This document shows positions 4,207 to 14,063 of a DNA stretch of 64,000 nucleotides, in pieces (position 1 is the first letter of the stretch; each line of letters starts with the position of its first letter). A model generated the notes under the pieces. The model made no database searches. It was given only the letters and a program-made list of their open reading frames with translations, and had not been told where the DNA came from. This DNA is from an uncultured bacterium. Its GTDB lineage: Bacteria; JAGRBM01; JAHCIT01. The DNA lies in contig CAZUMS010000003.1 in assembly GCA_964621525.1 (NCBI GenBank), positions 37,129 through 101,128 on the forward strand. Reading direction: 5' to 3'. The translations under genes and the position numbers were made by a program.

Positions 4207-5139
4207 ATGACGGAAACTTCCGGCAAACGGCCGCCCTCCCGGACGGTGATCTGGCTGCGGGCGATGCGGCTCGTCTCGCTGCCCGCCGCCCTCGTGCCGC
4301 TGATGGTGGGCGGCGGCCTCGCCTCCCTTGCCGAAAGGCCCGTGGACTGGCTGCTCATCGTCTGGATGACCCTCTCGGCGTCGGCGATGCTGCTCGCCGT
4401 CAATATCCGCAACGATATCGACGACCACGACCGGGGTCTCGACAAACCCGGCCAGCCGTTCGGTGCGGCGGGTTCGGGCGTACTTCCGGACGGACTGCTC
4501 ACGCGGAAGGAAATGAAACGGGCGCTCTTCCTGCTCATGGGAATCGCGGCGGTTTCGTCGGTCCCGCTGATTTACGCCCGGGGTACCGCCGTGCTCGCGC
4601 TCGGGATTGCCGGTTTCTCGCTCGGGCTCCTCTACACGGCGAAACCGTTCGGCCTGAAATACCTGGGTCTCGGCGATCCGCTGGTGTTCCTGCTCATGGG
4701 GCCCCTGATGGTGAGCGGCGTGGACTGGATCCTGACCGGCGAACTTGTCCCGGCACGGATCCTCGCCGGATTGCCTGTGGGACTCGTGGCGGTACTGATC
4801 CTCCACTGCAACAACTGGCGCGATCTGGATTCGGACCGGGAGGCGGGGACCCTGACGGTCGCGATCCGTCTGGGTGAGCGTGGTTCATCGTTCTATGCAG
4901 CGGTCCTCGCCTACGGCGCAATTCTGATCGCCGCCGGGGCCGCTCTCGCGGGGGCCGTGCCGTACCTCTGCCTGCTCGTATTCTTGTGCCTTCCGAAAGC
5001 GTCCGCTATTCTGCGGCTTATCAGGGAAGGCCGTGAGGCGTACCGGCGGCGCGGACCCCGTGGTGATCCCACGTTCCATGCCGCCCAGCTGCACCTCCTG
5101 TTCGGCCTTCTCTACGCGGCGGGACTGTTCTTCGGCTGA
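4207..5139 (+). CDS. UbiA-family aromatic prenyltransferase, MenA-like (1,4-dihydroxy-2-naphthoate polyprenyltransferase)
   Basis: 310 aa, ~8 TM; Asp-rich motif NDIDDHDRGLD; directly downstream of the polyprenyl-PP synthase. Confidence 0.65.
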   Translation: MTETSGKRPPSRTVIWLRAMRLVSLPAALVPLMVGGGLASLAERPVDWLLIVWMTLSASAMLLAVNIRNDIDDHDRGLDKPGQPFGAAGSGVLPDGLLTRKEMKRALFLLMGIAAVSSVPLIYARGTAVLALGIAGFSLGLLYTAKPFGLKYLGLGDPLVFLLMGPLMVSGVDWILTGELVPARILAGLPVGLVAVLILHCNNWRDLDSDREAGTLTVAIRLGERGSSFYAAVLAYGAILIAAGAALAGAVPYLCLLVFLCLPKASAILRLIREGREAYRRRGPRGDPTFHAAQLHLLFGLLYAAGLFFG

Positions 5140-5142
5140 TAG

Positions 5143-5739
5143 ATGGCGGATGAAAAGCAGTCCGGCCCCGTACACGGTGCGGGGGACAAGTTGACCAAGG
5201 CGGCACAACCCAAACCGGCGCTTCGTGCGCCCAAGCTCATGGCCGACGCCATCGGCCAGCTCATGGAGTTCTGGAATTTCAAGAGCAACCTGGGCCGCAT
5301 CTGGACGCTCCTTTATCTCTCTCCGGACCCGGTCGCCGCCGCCGATATCGCCGACCACCTGAACCTCTCCTCTGGCGCCGTCAGCATGGCGACGAATGAG
5401 CTCCTCCGCTGGAAGGCGATCAAGAAGATCCACCAGCCAGGCGAGCGCAAGGACTTCTTCACGGCCGAAACCGACCTGTGGCGGCTCATTACGGGCGTCC
5501 TGTCGGACCGCGAGCGGCGCGAGATCGAATCGGCCCTGGAGGCCTTCAAGGAAGCGCTCTCGGCGCTCGATTCCGAGAAGGACCACTACGATCCGAAGGA
5601 CTTCAGGTTCAAGAAGGAACGGATCGAGCGGATGTTCCAGCTCGCGATGATGGGCAAGACAATGCTCGACACGCTCCTGAACCAGGCCCACCTCAACATG
5701 AAGCCGATCCGCGAGCATCTGGACAAGCTGAAGAGCTGA
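5143..5739 (+). CDS. GbsR/MarR-family HTH transcriptional regulator
   Basis: 198 aa; winged-helix region LGRIWTLLYLSPDPVAAADIADHLNLSSGAVSMATNELLRWKAI typical of GbsR-type regulators; start 4 nt after the menA-like stop. Confidence 0.6.
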   Translation: MADEKQSGPVHGAGDKLTKAAQPKPALRAPKLMADAIGQLMEFWNFKSNLGRIWTLLYLSPDPVAAADIADHLNLSSGAVSMATNELLRWKAIKKIHQPGERKDFFTAETDLWRLITGVLSDRERREIESALEAFKEALSALDSEKDHYDPKDFRFKKERIERMFQLAMMGKTMLDTLLNQAHLNMKPIREHLDKLKS

Positions 5740-5756
5740 AGCGGAATCCCAGCCCC

Positions 5757-5790
5757 TGAAAAGCCCTACGCCCGCGGCCTTTTCAGGCGG
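5757..5790 (+). terminator. weak hairpin plus T-run after the regulator gene
   Basis: gaaaagccctacgcccgcggccttttc: gaaaag/cttttc arms around the ccgcgg core; imperfect. Confidence 0.3.
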
Positions 5791-5811
5791 CGGACGTTCG
5801 GGTTAATAGGC

Positions 5812-6083
5812 GGAGGGCCGGAGCCCGATCAGGGATTGGGAAAAACCGGGTTCAGCATCGTTACTGGGAGTTGCCAGCCGTTCCGCTTGCGCGGTTCAGC
5901 GATCCCGTGGCAAACCCGGATGCCGGAACCCGATGGAGGAAACCCTCTGCCGGGCGCCGGCCTCTCCAAGGTTTTCTGCCCTGGCCGCCGGAGGGAAGAA
6001 GGCCTGCGCGGCTCGATGTCCAGGTTCCGTTGCGCATCGCAGGCCTCCTTTCATTCCCGTCCGGCTTCCCGGTACTTCCGCTC
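5812..6083. repeat. conserved ~270-nt noncoding element, copy A (immediately 3' of amt1)
   Basis: Shares long identical blocks with 8086..8349: cagggattgggaaaaaccgggt (22/22), gcgatcccgtg, gaggaaaccctctgccgggcgccggcct (28/28), ccaaggt, gtccggcttcc. Not consistently coding (see findings). Confidence 0.7.
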
Positions 6084-7583
6084 TCAGCCGCGGCTTCCGT
6101 GGAGCGTATCGCCCACGTAGCACTCGATGCCGAGTTCCTTGAGGTCGAGACCCTCGACTTCCTCTTCCTCGGACACGCGGACGCCCATCACGGCTTTCAC
6201 CGCATACCAGACCACCAGGCTCGCCGGGAACGCATAGGCTCCGACAGCGACGATGCCGATGATCTGATTGATGAGCTGGCCGGCGCCGCCTCCGTAGAAG
6301 AGGCCGAGGCCGGGCTGGGCTTCTCCGCCGGCAAAGGCCGGAGCGGCGAACAGGCCCACGCAGAGCGTGCCCCAGATCCCGTTGGCGAGGTGGACCGAGA
6401 GCGCGCCGACCGGGTCGTCGATCTTCAGCTTGTCCCAGAACAGCACGCTGTAGAAGCAGAGGATGCCGCCGACCGCGCCGATCACGAACGCGCCGCCTGC
6501 CGTTACCCAGGCGCACGGGGCGGTGATCGCCACGAGGCCCGCGAGGCAGCCGTTCAGCGACATGCCAAGGTCAGGCTTGCCGAACGTGATCCAGGCGATA
6601 GCCGTCGCGGTCGCCATGCCTGCCACTGCGGCGATATTCGTCGTCATGGCGATGTGGGCGATGGCGCCGCCGTCCCAGGTCATGGTCGAGCCGGGGTTGA
6701 ACCCGAACCAGCCGAGCCACAGGATCAGCGTGCCGAGCACGACGAGCGGAATTGAGTGGGCCGGAATCGCGTTGACCTTGCCGTCGGCCGAGTACTTGCC
6801 GATACGCGGCCCGATCACGAGGATGCCGGCGAGACCCGCCCAGCCGCCCACCGAGTGGACGACCGTGGAGCCCGCGAAGTCCCAGAATCCCTTGCCGGCG
6901 AGCCAGCCGGCACCCCAGATCCACTTGCCGGGGACCGGGTAAACCAGTGCTGTCAGCAGGAATGCGAAGACAACGAAGGAGAGATACTTGTTCCGCTCGT
7001 CCACGCAGCCGGAGACGATCGTCGCGGCCGTGCCGGCGAAGGCGAGCTGGAAGAAGAACTTGCCTTCCAGCGCCACGTTCGCCCAGCCGAGGGCGCCGGT
7101 GTAAAGTTCTTCAGGACCGATAAATGGCGTGAAAGAGCCCAGGAAGCCGCTTCCCTCGCCGAACATGAGCGAGAACCCGATCACCCAGTAGGCGAGCGTC
7201 GCCGCGCCGAACACGACGAAGTTCTTGCCGAGGATCGTGGCCGCGTTCTTCTTGCGGCAGAAACCGCTCTCCACAAGCGCGAAACCGGCGTTCATGAAGA
7301 ACACCAGGAAGCCGGCGATCATCGTCCAGACCGTATCGGCCGAAAACTTGATCGCATCGGTGCGGGCCTTCAGTTCTTCAAGCTGCTTGCTCAGCTCTTC
7401 CGTCGAAGGACCGGCCGGGGCTGCCGCGGCAGCCGGTGCCGCTTCGGCGGGCGGAGCGGCCTCAGCCGGTGCGGCCGCTGCTTCGGCCGGCGGCGGCGTG
7501 TCCTGCGCCGTGACGAGGGACGGACGCCAGAGCGCCGCCCCCAGCAGCATCAGTGCGAGAATTACTGTGGATTTCTTCAACAT
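6084..7583 (-). CDS. amt: ammonium transporter (Amt/MEP family), paralog 1
   Basis: 499 aa; signal peptide plus Ala/Pro-rich linker, then the Amt core (DTVWTMIAGFLVFFMNAGFALVESG ... 11 TM). Confidence 0.9.
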   Translation of the reverse strand: MLKKSTVILALMLLGAALWRPSLVTAQDTPPPAEAAAAPAEAAPPAEAAPAAAAAPAGPSTEELSKQLEELKARTDAIKFSADTVWTMIAGFLVFFMNAGFALVESGFCRKKNAATILGKNFVVFGAATLAYWVIGFSLMFGEGSGFLGSFTPFIGPEELYTGALGWANVALEGKFFFQLAFAGTAATIVSGCVDERNKYLSFVVFAFLLTALVYPVPGKWIWGAGWLAGKGFWDFAGSTVVHSVGGWAGLAGILVIGPRIGKYSADGKVNAIPAHSIPLVVLGTLILWLGWFGFNPGSTMTWDGGAIAHIAMTTNIAAVAGMATATAIAWITFGKPDLGMSLNGCLAGLVAITAPCAWVTAGGAFVIGAVGGILCFYSVLFWDKLKIDDPVGALSVHLANGIWGTLCVGLFAAPAFAGGEAQPGLGLFYGGGAGQLINQIIGIVAVGAYAFPASLVVWYAVKAVMGVRVSEEEEVEGLDLKELGIECYVGDTLHGSRG

Positions 7584-7800
7584 GGCTTTTCCTGCCTCTC
7601 CCGTTTTTCATCGTTCGGGAACGGAACCCTTGGAAGATCACCGGCGGACCTCCGGCCTTTACAACCTGTCCGTCTGCCGGATCCATTTCAGACCCGGCGG
7701 GGATCTCTTCGGGTTCCGGACCTCGTTTCAAATGGTTTTTGTCTCTCAGGCGAGACAGGCCGGGCCGGGTGGATCGGACGGCACGGCAGTCTTTCCCACC
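7584..7800 (-). promoter_or_regulatory. amt1 5' leader (~215 nt) with conserved 5' block
   Basis: Minus-strand block gggaaagac..gtgccg..gatccacccgg.ccgg..gtct.gcctgag (plus 7741-7800) is shared with the amt2 leader (plus 10196-10245); it lies immediately downstream of the predicted sigma54 promoter. Confidence 0.5.
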
Positions 7801-7809
7801 GGGGCGGAC

Positions 7810-7825
7810 TGCACTTGGCAGGCCA
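7810..7825 (-). promoter_or_regulatory. sigma54 (RpoN) -24/-12 promoter for amt1
   Basis: Minus strand TGGCCTGCCAAGTGCA: GG and GC in canonical positions (TGGCAC-N5-TTGCA spacing). Confidence 0.55.
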
Positions 7826-8085
7826 CGATGATCTGCAGCCGGACAAAAAGCGCCTGAAGGCAGGGTTGAATCCGCCGGAAGTTCAGGACGCGACAAACAA
7901 ACTCAAGCTACTGTAAGTATAAGCGAAATTAAGGAATCCTCCCCCGGCTGAAGGCACAGCTTTCGGGGTTCATTTTTTTGTCAAGGCTACAGGCTCCCGG
8001 CCCGGAACTAGTGTCTAAATATGTTGCAAGGATGCGGCTGAGAGCCGAGGCTTTGCCCGGAAATTGTGCATCCGGACGAAAATGG

Positions 8086-8349
8086 GGGCCGGTGCCCAGC
8101 CAGGGATTGGGAAAACCGGGTCCAGTACCGTTTTGCCGGAGCCCGTCAGCCGGATCATTTGCACGATCCGGCGATCCCGTGACGGTTCCGAGTACCGGAC
8201 CTCGGTCGAGGAAACCCTCTGCCGGGCGCCGGCCTGCCCAAGGTCGTTGCGAAGCGGCGGAACCCGAAGGAGAAGAGGCACCATTGGCTGCGCGGCGGTT
8301 GCGTTGCGGTTCATGTTGCCTCCCTCCTTCAGTGTCCGGCTTCCAGGCG
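8086..8349. repeat. conserved ~265-nt noncoding element, copy B (immediately 3' of amt2)
   Basis: See copy A. Contains SD gaaggagggagg plus ATG ~36 nt after the amt2 stop (track ORF 8015..8314). Confidence 0.7.
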
Positions 8350-10038
8350 TCAGCGGGCGTGCGGGGTCTCGGACGCCTTGTCCATCACGACACCCACATA
8401 CGCGGCGCAGCCCATTTCCGGGATATCAAGACCCTCAATCTCGGCTTCCACGGGTGTCCTGAGACCGACAGTCACATCGAGCAGCTTGAAGACCGCAAAA
8501 CCGATGGCGCCCACATAGACGAAGTTCGTGAGCACGCCGATCGACTGGGCGATGAACTGGCTCGCATCTCCGTAGAAGAGGCCCTTCACCGGACCGGCAA
8601 CGCCGTTCCAGCCATCGCCGTAGGAACCGTCGGCGAAAAGACCCAGGGCGAGGCAGCCCCAGGCGCCGTTCACGCCATGGACCGCCACCGCACCTACCGG
8701 GTCGTCGATCTTGAGGACGCGCTCGATGAAGAACACGGCCTCGACCACGATGATGCCGGAGACGAGCCCGATGATGCAGGAGGCCATGGAGTTCACGAAC
8801 GCACAGGGTGCCGTGATCGCCACAAGCCCGGCGAGCATACCGTTCGCCATCATGCTGGGATCCGGCTTACCCATCCGGAAAGCCCAGCAGTAGAGCGTGG
8901 CCGCGAGCGCGCCGGTCATGGATGCGAGCATCGTGTTCACGGCTACCACTGCCAGACGAAGATCCGTGCCAGCGAGTGTTGAACCGGGGTTAAACCCGAA
9001 CCAGCCGAAAGCGAGAATAAAGGTGCCGATGATTGCCATCGGAATGTTGTGGCCGGGGATCGGGTTCGGCGAGCCGTCCTTGTTGTATTTTCCGGCGCGG
9101 GGGCCAATCAGCCATCCGCCCACGAGCGCGAGCACGCCGCCCGTCATGTGCACGACCGAGGAGCCGGCGAAATCCACATGCCCGTGACCGAGGCCGTAAT
9201 ACTTGCCCAGCGTCGCCAGGAAGCCGCCGCCCCAGACCCAGCAGCCGTAGATCGGATAAATGATCGTGCCGACGGCGAGGCCATAGAGGAAGAACGACTT
9301 GTAGTTCCAGCGTTCGGCCATGGAACCGGTGGGAATCGTCGCCGTGGTGTCCATGAACACCATCTGGAAGAGGAACAGCGCGAAGATCGAGACATCGTAG
9401 ACGTCGGATCCGAGGAAGAAGCCCTTCGTACCGAACAGCACCCAGTCGTTACCGCCCACCTTGATCGAGAAGGCGGAGTTCAGCACATCCGTGCCGCCCA
9501 GCGTGCCCAGCGCCCCGAAGCCGCCGAACATGAAAGCGAAGCCGCACACGTAGAAACCGAGCATCCCGAGCGGATAGATCAGGAAGTTCATGGCCATTGT
9601 ATGCGACGCATTCTTGGCGCGGGTGAAGCCGGTCTCGACCATGGCGAATCCGGCCTGCATGAACATGACGAGGAAGCCGGCCAGCATGGTCCACACCATG
9701 TTGATCGAAACCTTGTTCTTGCCGACCTGGTTGGCGACGTCGCCCAGGGTCAACTTACCGGCTTCCGACTGAGGAACATCGGTCATGTTGCCCGTGGCGC
9801 CGCCACTGGGATCCGGCGCCCGCGGCGAGGCCGGCGCCTCGACCGTAATGCTCATCTCCACTGGCGCGGGCGGCGCTGCCGGCGGAGCGGGTGTGGCGGC
9901 GGCCTCTGCCGCCGGCGCAGAAGTCTCCGCCGGAGGTGGTACGGTTTCGTCGGCATTGGCCCAGTGGGGAACAATCAGTAGCGCGGCTGCGAACCAGACG
10001 ATCGCCGCAAAACTCATAATCTTTCTGGATTTACTCAT
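8350..10038 (-). CDS. amt: ammonium transporter (Amt/MEP family), paralog 2
   Basis: 562 aa; signal peptide MSKSRKIMSFAAIVWFAAALLIVPHWANA, Pro/Ala-rich linker, Amt core (NMVWTMLAGFLVMFMQAGFAMVETG). About 50% identity to paralog 1. Confidence 0.9.
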   Translation of the reverse strand: MSKSRKIMSFAAIVWFAAALLIVPHWANADETVPPPAETSAPAAEAAATPAPPAAPPAPVEMSITVEAPASPRAPDPSGGATGNMTDVPQSEAGKLTLGDVANQVGKNKVSINMVWTMLAGFLVMFMQAGFAMVETGFTRAKNASHTMAMNFLIYPLGMLGFYVCGFAFMFGGFGALGTLGGTDVLNSAFSIKVGGNDWVLFGTKGFFLGSDVYDVSIFALFLFQMVFMDTTATIPTGSMAERWNYKSFFLYGLAVGTIIYPIYGCWVWGGGFLATLGKYYGLGHGHVDFAGSSVVHMTGGVLALVGGWLIGPRAGKYNKDGSPNPIPGHNIPMAIIGTFILAFGWFGFNPGSTLAGTDLRLAVVAVNTMLASMTGALAATLYCWAFRMGKPDPSMMANGMLAGLVAITAPCAFVNSMASCIIGLVSGIIVVEAVFFIERVLKIDDPVGAVAVHGVNGAWGCLALGLFADGSYGDGWNGVAGPVKGLFYGDASQFIAQSIGVLTNFVYVGAIGFAVFKLLDVTVGLRTPVEAEIEGLDIPEMGCAAYVGVVMDKASETPHAR

Positions 10039-10248
10039 GATCGGTTTCCTGTCTCTCCATGAAATTCACTGCCGCCGTTTCACTTCATCCTGCGGGAGCC
10101 CGGCGCCGGAATCCGTCGTCGGCCCTTCTGGATGGAGCAGCCGACTCAAGCTCGTCGGCGGTTTCAGCAGTGCCGTTGTTGAGGCCTCAGGCAGACGGAC
10201 CGGTCCGGGTGGATCTGGCGGCACAGTCGTCTTTCCCGTCCGAGACGA

Positions 10249-10264
10249 AGCATCAGCTATGCCA
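10249..10264 (-). promoter_or_regulatory. sigma54 (RpoN) -24/-12 promoter for amt2
   Basis: Minus strand TGGCATAGCTGATGCT: TGGCAT-N5-ATGCT with GG/GC at canonical spacing; followed by a leader conserved with amt1. Confidence 0.55.
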
Positions 10265-10460
10265 TAAAAATGAACTAAAAATTTTAGTCTATTTCCGAGA
10301 TATATTCGGAAGAAATATCGGGAATAACGATGTCGAAATTTAATTCATAAGTATATGATATTATTTATATATTTTACCAATTACGGAGATAAATACAGCA
10401 CACCCGAAGGGACGTATTATCCTTCAAATAAATTGTACTAAAAATATGTGTTCATTCTTC
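10265..10460. promoter_or_regulatory. AT-rich island (~200 bp, roughly 25-30% GC) upstream of the amt2 sigma54 promoter
   Basis: Sequence aaaaatgaactaaaaattttagtctatttccgagatatattcgg...tatatgatattatttatatattttaccaatt in a ~67% GC genome; position fits an enhancer/IHF-bending region for a sigma54 promoter. Confidence 0.45.
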
Positions 10461-10967
10461 AAACACCGGTTGAGAACCGTGCGAGGATTTCCGTAATGCC
10501 TCAAAAATTGGCGATTCGAAGACCTGTCGCCCCATTTCTGGGCACATCTGTTCTTTCACCTCTGAATCCCGCTGCCGGAATGTCCAAAAACATGCTCTGT
10601 GGAAATCATTTTCTACCTTTTATTTCACATGGTTATAAAAGTCCTACGTATTCCGAAGCTCCCGGTGGAGTTCTTGGTTTCTGCCTTGCACATTGGGGAA
10701 ACGCTGAACCGGCCTGCCAGAGGATGGGGAACGTCCCGGTCGGGACCGGAAAGCCCGGTCCATACTGTTCTGTTAAGGACAGCTGGATCAGGAGAGCGGT
10801 CGGCAAGGTGGGACGGCGCCGGGTGAAAAACCGGCGCACCGGTGGATTCGGAACCCGTTAAACCCGGCACTCCAAAGAACAAGAAGCCGGTATCAGAGCC
10901 GTCCGGCGGGAGTGCGGAGGAAATCCGCCCCGCCCATGGCAACCCGGATTCCGGGTAGCTAGGTTAG

Positions 10968-11342
<375 letters not shown>

Positions 11343-11494
11343 TCCTGGAATAAAGAGTTCAAGATATCGGCAGGCGGCAGCAGGATCCCGTGCGGCAGCC
11401 GGCCGGAGGCGGGCAAGCGGCAACTGAAAAGGTGCAGGCTCCCGGTGGAAAACCAAAGCAGGGAAAAACAAACCCAAGGAGCACTGGTGTCATT

Positions 11495-12913
11495 ATGACG
11501 ACAGGCAAAGACGTTCTGAAAATGATCAAGGACCACGGCGTCGAGATGGTGGACCTCAAGTTCACCGACTTCCTCGGCTCGTGGCAGCACAAGAGTCACC
11601 CGATCAACATGATCGACGAGGATACGTTCACCGACGGCCTCGGTTTCGACGGCAGCTCGATCCGCGGCTGGGCCGACATCCAGGAATCGGACATGCTCTC
11701 GATCCCGGACCCCTCGACCGCCCGCATCGACCCGTTCATGCAGCATCCGACGCTGTCGCTCGTCTGCGACATCGTGGATCCCATCACCCGCCAGCCGTAT
11801 TCCCGCGACCCGCGCTATATCGCCAGGAAGGCCGAGGCCTACCTGAAGTCGACCGGTATCGGCGACACGGCCTATATCGGGCCGGAGCCGGAATTCTTCA
11901 TTTTTGACGACATCCGGTACGAGGTCGGCCAGCACAAGTCGTTCGTCTCGATCGACTCGGGCGAGGCCCACTGGAACTCGGGCCGCGACGAAGGCGGCAA
12001 CCAGGGCTACAAGATCCGCCCGAAGGAAGGCTACTTCCCGGTTTCCCCGTTCGACCAGCAGCAGGACATCCGCACGGAAATGTGCCTCGTCATGCAGAAG
12101 GTCGGCATCGCGGTCGAAACGCAGCACCACGAAGTCGCCACTGCCGGCCAGGCCGAGATCGACATGGTGTTCGACTCGCTGCTGAACATGGCCGACAAGG
12201 TGATGTGGTACAAGTACATCTGCCGCAACGTCGCCAAGCGCCACGGCAAGGTCGTGACGTTCATGCCGAAGCCCATGCCGGCCGACAACGGGTCGGGCAT
12301 GCACACCCACCAGTCGGTGTGGAAGGGCGGCAAGAACCTGTTCGCGGGCAGCGGCTACGGCGGACTGTCCGAGTTCGGCCTCTACTACATCGGCGGCATC
12401 CTGAAGCACGCCAAGGCTCTCAACGCCTTCACGAACCCGACGCTGAACAGCTACCGCCGTCTGGTTCCGGGCTTCGAGGCGCCGGTGTCCCTGGCCTACT
12501 CGTGCCGTAACCGCTCGGCCTCCTGCCGCATCCCGATGTACAGCAACAGCCCGAAGTCCAAGCGTGTGGAAGTCCGCTTCCCCGACGCGACCTGCAATCC
12601 GTACATCGCTTTCGCCGCCATGCTCATGGCCGGCCTCGACGGTGTTCAGAACAAGATCAACCCGGGCGATGCGCTGGACAAGAACCTGTACGATCTCTCG
12701 CCGGAAGAGCTCGCCAACGTGCCGCAGGCCTGCGGCTCGCTGGAAGAGGCGCTCGAGGCTCTGGAGAACGACCACAAGTTCCTCCTGAAGGGCGACGTCT
12801 TCACGAAGGACGTGATCGACACGCAGCTCGCCTGGAAGCGTCACCACGAAATCGACGTGGCCCGTTTCACGGTTCCGCCGATCGAGCACAAGCTCTACTT
12901 CGACGCCGGCTGA
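11495..12913 (+). CDS. glnA: glutamine synthetase type I
   Basis: 472 aa from [32 protein letters not shown]; SD aaggag 15 nt upstream; GS-I motifs ([25 protein letters not shown]). The track ORF begins 35 codons upstream at a GTG. Confidence 0.95.
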
Positions 12914-13034
12914 TCGCCAGCGCCCCGAAGCGGCCTGCAAGGCGCCGATGCGCTCCTTTCCTCTGGGAAAGGGGCGCATCGCGCTTTTACGGGTCCCGTT
13001 CCACCCGCGCTCCCCGTCCGCTACCCTAGCCCTC

Positions 13035-14063
13035 ATGCCGAAGGTGTCCGTGCTGATTCCGGTCTACAACGGCGCGCCGTTTCTCGGGGACGCGCTGGAG
13101 AGCGTGCTCGCGCAGGAGGGCGCGCCGGATTTCGAGATCGTTACGGCCGACGACGGATCTGCCGATGCCACCCCGGCCCTGCTGGAGCGCTTCGTCCGCC
13201 GGGACGCCCGCATCCGGGCGCTTCGCCTTCCGCACGGGGGAATCGCGAAAACCCTTTCGGCAGGACTTGAGGCGTGCCGGGCTCCTTATGTCTGCCGCCT
13301 CGATGCCGACGACCTGATGCCGCCCGGGCGCCTCGCCGCGCAGACCGCCTTTCTGGAGACGAACCCCGGCGTTACCGCCGTTTCCGGTATGGTCGTCCAC
13401 GAACCCCACCCGGAGATTCCCTCGGACGGCATGGCAAACTACGTTGCCTGGATGAACCGCCAGAAGACCCACGAGGAGATGCTTGCCGCCATCTGGACCG
13501 ATTCGCCGGTCGCCCACCCGTCGGTGATGTTCCGGCGGGATGCGGTCCTTGAAGCGGGCGGCTACGCCAGTGTCCCGTGGCCCGAGGACACGGACCTGTG
13601 GTTCCGGCTGCTGCTCCGGGGCCGGCGGTTCGCCAAGCTCGACACCGGGGTCCTCTGCTGGCGGGATCACGGCAGCCGTCTGACCCGGACCGACAATGGC
13701 CATTACGGCCCCGCCGCGCAGGCGGCGATGAAGGCTCATTACCTGCCGAGGTTTTTCCCCCGCGCGGCCCGCCACGGCGTCACCGTCATCGGCGCCGGCC
13801 CGTTCGGAAAACGGCTCGCGAAATCCCTCGCCGCCGGCGGCGTGCGTGTGAACCGGTTTGTGGATGTGGACCCGCGCAAGATCGGCAGCAGCCGCCTCGG
13901 CATTCCCGTTTTGTCCGCCAGGGACCTGCGCCCGGACGACGGCGACCTGCTCGTATCCGCCGTTGGAACGCCCGGAGCGCGCGAGCTGATCCGGAGCGAA
14001 CTTGCAGGACTCGGAATCCCGGCTAGCCACGGAGGAGACACCCGTGTCGTCTTCTGCCACTGA
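13035..14063 (+). CDS. family 2 glycosyltransferase with C-terminal Rossmann-like (GxGxxG) extension
   Basis: MPKVSVLIPVYNGAPFLGDALESVLAQ...DDGSAD... GT2 (GT-A) N-domain with DxD-like CRLDADD; C-terminal VTVIGAGPFGKRLAKSLAAGGVRV. Confidence 0.75.
   Translation: MPKVSVLIPVYNGAPFLGDALESVLAQEGAPDFEIVTADDGSADATPALLERFVRRDARIRALRLPHGGIAKTLSAGLEACRAPYVCRLDADDLMPPGRLAAQTAFLETNPGVTAVSGMVVHEPHPEIPSDGMANYVAWMNRQKTHEEMLAAIWTDSPVAHPSVMFRRDAVLEAGGYASVPWPEDTDLWFRLLLRGRRFAKLDTGVLCWRDHGSRLTRTDNGHYGPAAQAAMKAHYLPRFFPRAARHGVTVIGAGPFGKRLAKSLAAGGVRVNRFVDVDPRKIGSSRLGIPVLSARDLRPDDGDLLVSAVGTPGARELIRSELAGLGIPASHGGDTRVVFCH

Follow-up and report, generated by a model that had tools for sequence, protein, structure and literature searches.

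How are two ammonium transporter genes regulated when neither of them has a glnK partner? Ammonium uptake is usually under NtrC/sigma-54 control at the level of transcription, together with plugging of the transporter by GlnK. The question is raised by a stretch of 64,000 nucleotides (nt) of DNA from an uncultured bacterium (hereafter the window: contig CAZUMS010000003.1 of assembly GCA_964621525.1, positions 37,129 to 101,128), which carries two ammonium transporter genes, amt1 and amt2, on its minus strand. The encoded proteins are only 46-47% identical and are therefore not recent duplicates. Despite this divergence, the two genes have in common a leader block, a box at the ribosome site and a 3' element of ~155 nt. 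The leader block lies just downstream of a sigma-54-type promoter and its RNA can be folded into a hairpin; judged by comparison among genomes, this hairpin is a real element, confined to a narrow clade, and it probably controls the translation or the lifetime of the amt messages. The features on which the argument turns are as follows.

6084..7583, minus strand: amt1 coding sequence, 499 amino acids (Pfam Ammonium_transp, E=2e-117)
7736..7746, minus strand: A-rich tract AGAGACAAAAA directly 3' of the amt1 hairpin, kept in amt1-type copies
7747..7798, minus strand: amt1 5'-terminal hairpin, 52 nt, with an 11-nt loop UCCGAUCCACC (-22.6 kcal/mol in isolation; covariance-model score 94.6 bits)
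7810..7825, minus strand: amt1 sigma-54-type -24/-12 promoter TGGCCTGCCAAGTGCA; GG-N10-GC is kept in L081, L082, L084 and L118
8350..10038, minus strand: amt2 coding sequence, 562 amino acids (Pfam Ammonium_transp, E=5e-108)
10188..10238, minus strand: amt2 5'-terminal hairpin, 51 nt, of the same architecture, with loop CCAGAUCCACC (-17.6 kcal/mol in isolation; covariance-model score 73.2 bits)
10249..10264, minus strand: amt2 sigma-54-type -24/-12 promoter TGGCATAGCTGATGCT, kept in L081 and L118

The leader hairpin and its promoter

What do the two leaders have in common? The original prediction had placed a sigma-54 promoter upstream of each amt gene, and both boxes are found where it had put them, TGGCCTGCCAAGTGCA at 7825-7810 and TGGCATAGCTGATGCT at 10264-10249 on the minus strand. 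Counted from the -12 box to the start codons (at 7583 and 10038), the leader of amt1 would be ~226 nt long and that of amt2 ~210 nt. A block common to both leaders, GGGAAAGAC…GTGCCG…GATCCACC…GTCT…GCCTG, lies 11-12 nt downstream of each promoter box. Between 7753-7797 and 10193-10237, 45 nt can be aligned without gaps at 82% identity; both flanks diverge, and the leaders otherwise align poorly. The shared block that had been proposed is thus real, with its limits at 7747-7798 and 10188-10238 in place of 7741-7800 and 10196-10245.

Is the block kept in other genomes? Protein searches with Amt1 and Amt2, followed by contig look-ups, yielded four further populations: the JGI contig Ga0268299_1004784 (L081, Amt1 96% identical), two sets of Logan contigs (L082/L083, 75-77% identical, and L084/L085, 72-75% identical) and the NCBI assembly GCA_964565925.1 (L118), in which both transporters are of the Amt2 type; the window's own genome is L119. 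Together with the window, these populations hold eight distinct copies of the block, and each copy is immediately upstream of an amt gene. The original prediction had staked itself on such retention in related genomes.

Sigma-54 promoters have GG and GC elements 10 nt apart (TGGCAC-N5-TTGCW), and transcription starts ~11-13 nt downstream of the -12 GC. The pattern TGGC-N8-TGC[A/T] is found at all eight copies of the block, in five populations, and is always 11-12 nt upstream of GGGAAAGAC. The GG and GC boxes and their distance to the block are invariant, while the promoter spacer and the 100 nt upstream are at background similarity; the boxes that were originally recognised by their letters are thereby backed by conservation at a fixed spacing in otherwise diverged DNA. 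On its own, TGGC-N8-TGCW is not enriched in the window (4 matches against 2.8 expected, with 30 of 100 shuffles reaching 4). Because the pattern alone is not significant there, the promoter call rests on position and on conservation in the other genomes. The comparative support for assigning the amt promoters to the sigma-54 type is good, which is not to say that it amounts to proof.

How does the block fold? The hairpin consists of 16 pairs in four short stems with small internal loops, and is closed by an 11-nt apical loop that ends in the invariant GAUCCACC. In amt1 the stems are YGGG/CCUG (P0), AGAC/GUCU (P1) and twice GCCG/CGGC (P2 and P3). The agac…gtct arms, which had been thought capable of closing a stem, do pair, as part of this longer structure. 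RNAalifold independently predicts the same single 16-pair hairpin, both from six sequences and from eight. Standard pairs occupy 90% of the hairpin pair cells, compared with 22-43% when the partners are slid against each other. The covariation analysis of orthologous leaders that had been suggested finds compensatory changes at 18-46 (G-C to A-U), at 26-38 (G-C to A-U) and at the optional pair 17-47; in L118, a U·C mismatch at 22-42 has become C-G. The covariation score is 0.190 against 0.155±0.012 in shuffled alignments, and 1 of 500 shuffles reaches 0.190, a control whose outcome is not a probability, which is a first caution.

The pairing is also a property of one strand. Read on the sense strand, 125 of the 128 cells of the 16 pairs can pair, as opposed to 107 of 128 on the antisense strand; 18 cells are G·U, and every one-sided change yields G·U on the sense strand. 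When folded in isolation, all eight 52-mers adopt the same shape, with energies of -17.6 to -25.7 kcal/mol. Copies of the hairpin are 75-92% identical to each other in pairs that have 40-58% identity at third codon positions and 12-58% in the rest of the leader. RNAalifold, the pair counts, the strand asymmetry and isolated folding thus agree with the structured 5' untranslated region (UTR) that had been suspected, and on these comparative data we take the block to be a structured RNA element that folds on the sense strand.

Two smaller observations concern the same region. The GAGAC of the A-rich tract AGAGACAAAAA can pair locally with GUCUC of the hairpin 3' strand, and a small alternative hairpin of this kind appears in minimum-energy folds. 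A leader peptide, in a frame running GTG…GCC-TGA across the block, was considered and rejected: 1-nt insertions or deletions in L082 and in the window amt2 leader break the frame, and most copies have no start codon.

How widely is the hairpin distributed? A covariance model of the hairpin (R1) was searched against ~720 kb, comprising the window, the loci of its relatives and ~90 other fetched loci, and it matches amt leaders only. This also disposes of a dispersed repeat, such as a palindrome of the repetitive extragenic or miniature inverted-repeat transposable element kind, since the copies found in the window and in all loci of the clade are confined to amt leaders. The block was not found in 80 amt loci of reference genomes, where Amt1 identity is at most 59%, nor at four loci with 65-68% Amt1 identity (L086, L111, L113 and L114), nor in two relatives of Amt2 (L123 and L125, 77% and 65%), nor in L120, a related genome whose syntenic regulator gene has no adjoining amt. 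A pattern scan of JGI metagenomes returned one true homolog, the contig L081; the other 23 contigs are unrelated, 17 of them having an unrelated repeat at their ends and six being chance matches that apparently fall within coding sequence. In the Rfam scan, no family matches any part of the window at its gathering score, and between 5000 and 11500 only noise appears at E≤10.

The repeat just mentioned is an observation apart. The 17 contigs, which are among L087-L109 (JGI Ga0187892 and Ga0187893), share the end sequence …GGGAAAGGGGGGAGTGCCGCCGCGATCCACC…; in L096 each end bears a copy, the two being inverted relative to each other. The sequence has the look of a terminal repeat from a mobile element that is present in many copies and interrupts assembly; the amt hairpin has no relation to it.

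The ribosome-site box and the action of the hairpin

A second conserved island, absent from the original prediction, is found in each leader at the ribosome-binding site.

7589..7602, minus strand: conserved box GGGAGAGGCAGGAA over the amt1 Shine-Dalgarno region, complementary to the hairpin 3' strand
10046..10058, minus strand: conserved box GGAGAGACAGGAA over the amt2 Shine-Dalgarno region

The amt1 box GGGAGAGGCAGGAA is a near copy of the hairpin 5' strand GGGAAAGAC and is complementary to the hairpin 3' strand …GUCUCGCCUG. Its GGGAGAG part lies at -22 to -15 from the ATG, which is too distant to be the Shine-Dalgarno sequence itself, and its conservation therefore needs another reason. In six of the eight leaders, no other segment of the leader pairs as well with the ribosome-site box as the hairpin 3' strand does (-12.2 to -21.2 kcal/mol). 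When either pairing is enforced in these six leaders, the energies of the closed and the alternative states differ by -3.3 to +4.0 kcal/mol.

How might the hairpin act? We put at roughly 0.6 the probability of a reading in which a sigma-54-type promoter is combined with a 5'-terminal hairpin that is read by a factor and that gates ribosome access, mRNA stability or both. Transcription of amt would proceed from the sigma-54 (RpoN)-type promoter, with a predicted start 1-3 nt before GGGAAAGAC, and the first 52 nt of the message would fold into the conserved hairpin and act in cis, at the level of RNA. While the hairpin is closed, its 3' strand GUCUCGCCUG would be sequestered and the ribosome site would be free; if the hairpin came apart at its base, that strand could mask the ribosome site. 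The balance between the two states would be set by a trans factor (a protein, a small RNA or a metabolite) that reads the invariant loop and the bulges. A base-paired 5' end would also guard the message against 5'-end-dependent decay, a second effect that is compatible with the first. Of the original interpretation, the promoter and the structured leader are upheld by the comparative data, while the mechanism is one that we infer.

The arrangement resembles the anti-Shine-Dalgarno/anti-anti-Shine-Dalgarno switches of translational riboswitches, RNA thermometers and protein-controlled leaders, in that three segments, GGGAAAGAC, GUCUCGCCUG and GGGAGAGGC, are mutually exclusive in their pairing and the two states are nearly isoenergetic in six of the eight leaders. 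It differs from them in that the alternative pairing is weak in L118 and is without covariation support.

Several points weigh against a hairpin that operates as a switch behind a sigma-54 promoter. The eight hairpin sequences come from five populations and have an effective number of 2.47, and half of the pairs are invariant. The isolated hairpins have modest Z-scores (-0.5 to -3.3), and the full hairpin is present in only about half of the minimum-energy folds of whole leaders; these folds are inconsistent among the copies and for that reason are not relied on. In the two L118 leaders, pairing of the 3' strand with the box is weak, at -10 to -12 kcal/mol, and no better than with other segments, and the closed hairpin is more stable than the alternative by 7-10 kcal/mol. 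A mismatch at position 48, the would-be partner of the A of AGGA, occurs in four of the eight copies, and it is this mismatch that leaves the switch without covariation support. The switch may not be valid in every member. On the side of the promoter, tblastn with E. coli RpoN and the NtrC AAA+ core found no rpoN or activator gene in the 64-kb window, and across the genomes compared there is no common activator site or dyad upstream of the promoters.

Might the hairpin be only a 5'-terminal stabiliser of the mRNA, blocking attack by RNase E, RNase J or RppH, with no switch or trans factor involved? Protection from 5'-end-dependent decay requires a stem within a few nt (~0-4) of the 5' end, for example in the E. 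coli ompA 5' UTR. Here the distance from the -12 box to the hairpin base is constant at 11-12 nt in all eight copies, so that the hairpin would start within ~3 nt of the predicted 5' end, and the strong preference for the closed state in L118 is in keeping with such a role. Stabiliser hairpins, by contrast, are not constrained in sequence: a generic stem needs neither an invariant 8-nt loop nor invariant bulges (AA and G54), 75-92% identity across paralogs whose proteins are 47% identical is not required, and the co-conserved GGGAGAGGC box is left unexplained. As the whole explanation, stabilisation is unlikely. The conserved unit could instead be DNA, an operator at +1 to +52 through which a nitrogen-responsive repressor or activator controls the sigma-54 holoenzyme, the hairpin being an imperfect inverted repeat. 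An operator would suit the fixed spacing to the promoter, and its TCCACC core (GAATCCACC in the window, GGATCCACC in L082 and L084, TTTCCACC in L118) recurs on the same strand 160-200 base pairs (bp) upstream of the glnB ATG in five of five genomes, as it would for the site of a shared regulator. Substitutions that, by way of G·U, leave the stems intact on the sense strand alone, together with the compensatory changes, speak against it, as do a non-palindromic centre that is the most conserved part, arms that are 32 bp apart, unlike a dimer site, and a footprint of 52 bp, which is unusually long; an operator is improbable. Equally improbable is a new small-molecule riboswitch that would report nitrogen status, with the hairpin as an aptamer (for example for glutamine, 2-oxoglutarate, or ammonium or a related ion) and the basal stem and ribosome-site box as its platform. 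A length of 52 nt and invariant loop and bulge nucleotides within covarying stems would suit a small aptamer, the mutually exclusive pairing with the ribosome-binding region exists, and the element is associated with amt only. Most riboswitch classes are broadly distributed, whereas this element is restricted to five populations; it has no relative in the Rfam scan of the window, a simple hairpin in which no pseudoknot was detected has limited potential to form a pocket, and the platform is weak in L118. To our knowledge, the glutamine riboswitches (glnA RNA, RF01739, and Downstream-peptide, RF01704) are the only catalogued riboswitch classes upstream of amt and nitrogen genes. They are, like the hairpin, small RNAs of the 5' UTR. 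Their architecture is a three-stem junction with an E-loop and a pseudoknot, in contrast to the single extended hairpin found here, and neither covariance model matches between 5000 and 11500 even at E≤10.

Could the leader act by premature termination and antitermination? The closest published layout is that of Geobacter sulfurreducens, in which conserved terminator hairpins lie downstream of the RpoN promoters of nif, glnK and amtB, and the ANTAR protein GnfR is proposed to counteract them (PMC2995071); there is thus a published precedent for nitrogen genes, amtB included, that share a conserved stem-loop in the leader, behind a sigma-54 promoter. The phylogenetic neighbourhood is likely to be similar as well, since the regulator next to the amt genes is 82% identical to one from a metagenome-assembled genome labelled 'Deltaproteobacteria bacterium', the sole taxonomic hint and a weak label. 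Unlike the Geobacter leaders, those of the window have a single hairpin with an 11-nt loop and not two hexaloop hairpins, the tract that follows it is A-rich and not U-rich, and the hairpin is at the extreme 5' end, with a 3' strand that matches the ribosome-site region. A terminator scan finds none on the minus strand in 7584-7809 or 10039-10248, and the GnfR box CAGGCAANGGCGCC is not found in either leader at up to two mismatches. Antitermination is accordingly very improbable. Docking of another RNA on the loop, be it the glnB leader, the conserved amt 3' RNA or an unlinked small RNA with Hfq, is quite improbable. Its attractions are that 6-10 nt of the loop are complementary to a conserved segment of the glnB leader in five of five genomes, that the 3' RNA, present with the hairpin in each of the eight cassettes, contains unpaired pyrimidine tracts that are conserved, and that an A-rich, ARN-like tract follows the hairpin. 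Both sides of the proposed duplex with glnB are almost invariant, so no covariation is obtainable; the sole informative change in the loop (L084, C38 to G) is uncompensated in its glnB leader, and the leader forms no stronger duplexes with the 3' element than shuffled controls do.

A factor-read hairpin behind a sigma-54-type promoter may also be set against the known NtrC/sigma-54 systems, such as the glnK-amtB and glnA promoters of Enterobacteria, Pseudomonas and others. In both, an ammonium transporter gene is preceded by GG at -24 and GC at -12, spaced in the canonical way, and the neighbouring glnB-glnA unit here has the same promoter type. They differ in that the -12 element here reads RTGCW, not TTGCW, that no enhancer site, rpoN or activator gene was found in the window, that no glnK is co-transcribed with amt, and that the leaders are long (104-244 nt) and carry conserved RNA elements. 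The general class to which the hairpin would belong, that of nitrogen-gene leaders downstream of sigma-54 promoters, is already known; within it, the hairpin would be a new and narrowly distributed cis-regulatory RNA.

The 3' element, glnB and the wider locus

Is the hairpin the only RNA element of these genes? Downstream of each amt gene in the clade (window, L081, L082, L084 and L118) lies a rod-like RNA of ~155 nt.

5812..5967, minus strand: structured RNA of ~155 nt downstream of amt1 (RNAalifold and alignment; no Rfam match)
8083..8239, minus strand: structured RNA of ~155 nt downstream of amt2, the same element as after amt1

RNAalifold predicts 53 pairs for this element and finds compensatory changes at 15. 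In the window, a covarying stem ends in a GCAA loop, which matches the GNRA tetraloop pattern on the sense strand alone. The conserved unpaired tracts are UCCUCCA, CGGGAUC and UUUUUCCC. There is no match to the element in Rfam, over the whole window at gathering scores or in 5000-11500 at E≤10. It accompanies the hairpin in eight of eight cassettes, including that of the Amt2-type gene at the amt1 position in L118. This co-occurrence suggests that the hairpin may act together with the 3' element, as was originally proposed; the predicted duplex energies between leader and 3' element are no better than those of shuffled controls.

In L118 (at ~7160-7200), a strong terminator-like hairpin, GGACCCGGCGG…CCGCCGGGUCC followed by UUUGUUUUG, lies between the first amt stop codon and the 3' RNA. 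The 3' RNA there may need read-through or a promoter of its own.

What would it mean for two such genes to have these elements in common? That deeply diverged amt genes (47%) share promoter type, hairpin, ribosome-site box and 3' RNA points to strong selection for nitrogen control at the level of RNA, and neither the hairpin nor the 3' RNA is in Rfam 15. A bolder proposal is that hairpin and 3' RNA together form a new RNA-based nitrogen-sensing module, with the hairpin as a new riboswitch or protein-responsive switch that replaces GlnK control of Amt at the mRNA level. If true, this would explain why the amt genes are without glnK and why the same 5' and 3' RNAs are found on two unrelated Amt subfamilies; we regard it as improbable. 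A switch operated by a ligand or a protein would represent a new nitrogen-responsive class of RNA and would offer a compact engineering part of 52 nt. Even as a mere stabiliser, the hairpin would be a clean example of a modular regulatory RNA common to non-orthologous genes.

The gene for the P-II protein (glnB, 11004-11342, plus strand) is transcribed away from amt2, and a probable glnA comes after it. The order of genes, GT2, glnA, P-II / amt, amt / small regulator, UbiA, polyprenyl synthase, is also annotated in two related contigs. The glnB unit has a promoter box of its own:

10675..10690, plus strand: glnB(-glnA) sigma-54-type promoter TGGTTTCTGCCTTGCA, kept in five genomes and divergent from amt2

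This -24/-12-type box, TGGTT…TTGCA, is 310-349 nt upstream of the glnB ATG in all five genomes (313 nt in the window), which implies a long glnB leader. As context for the amt promoters, its conservation suggests that the locus makes use of the sigma-54-type promoter class.

The surroundings of these promoters can be described further. The glnB and amt2 promoters diverge across an AT-rich region of ~410 bp (10265-10674). A 17-bp dyad, TGCACAATTTCCGGGCA, lies at 8040-8056 on the minus strand, 245 nt upstream of the amt1 promoter, and its counterpart in L081 (~5544-5560) is a perfect palindrome, TGCCCAATTTATGGGCA. Its layout, TGC-N11-GCA, is like that of an NtrC site; as a shared enhancer it was rejected, since among the genomes compared it is confined to the region upstream of amt1 in the window and in the 96% identical relative L081.

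Two conserved segments are seen in the glnB leader. At 10841-10849 (plus strand), GGTGGAT(T/C)C is the complement of the amt hairpin loop GAUCCACC, the match extending to 10 nt in L082; in RNA terms, GGUGGAU is complementary to AUCCACC of the loop. At 10937-10968 (plus strand), a conserved block TGGCAAC…GCTAGG(G)TTAGG lies near the start codon.

Both transporters have a signal-peptide-like N-terminus, followed by a Pro/Ala-rich extension of 80-110 amino acids ahead of the transporter domain (7300-7583 and 9700-10038, minus strand); the Pfam match begins at residue 85 in Amt1 and at residue 115 in Amt2. An open reading frame of 636 amino acids at 11126-13036 (minus strand) has no Pfam match and runs antisense to both glnB and the probable glnA. 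Almost certainly this frame is spurious, an antisense product of GC-rich DNA, and so are the long plus-strand frames that overlap amt1 and amt2.

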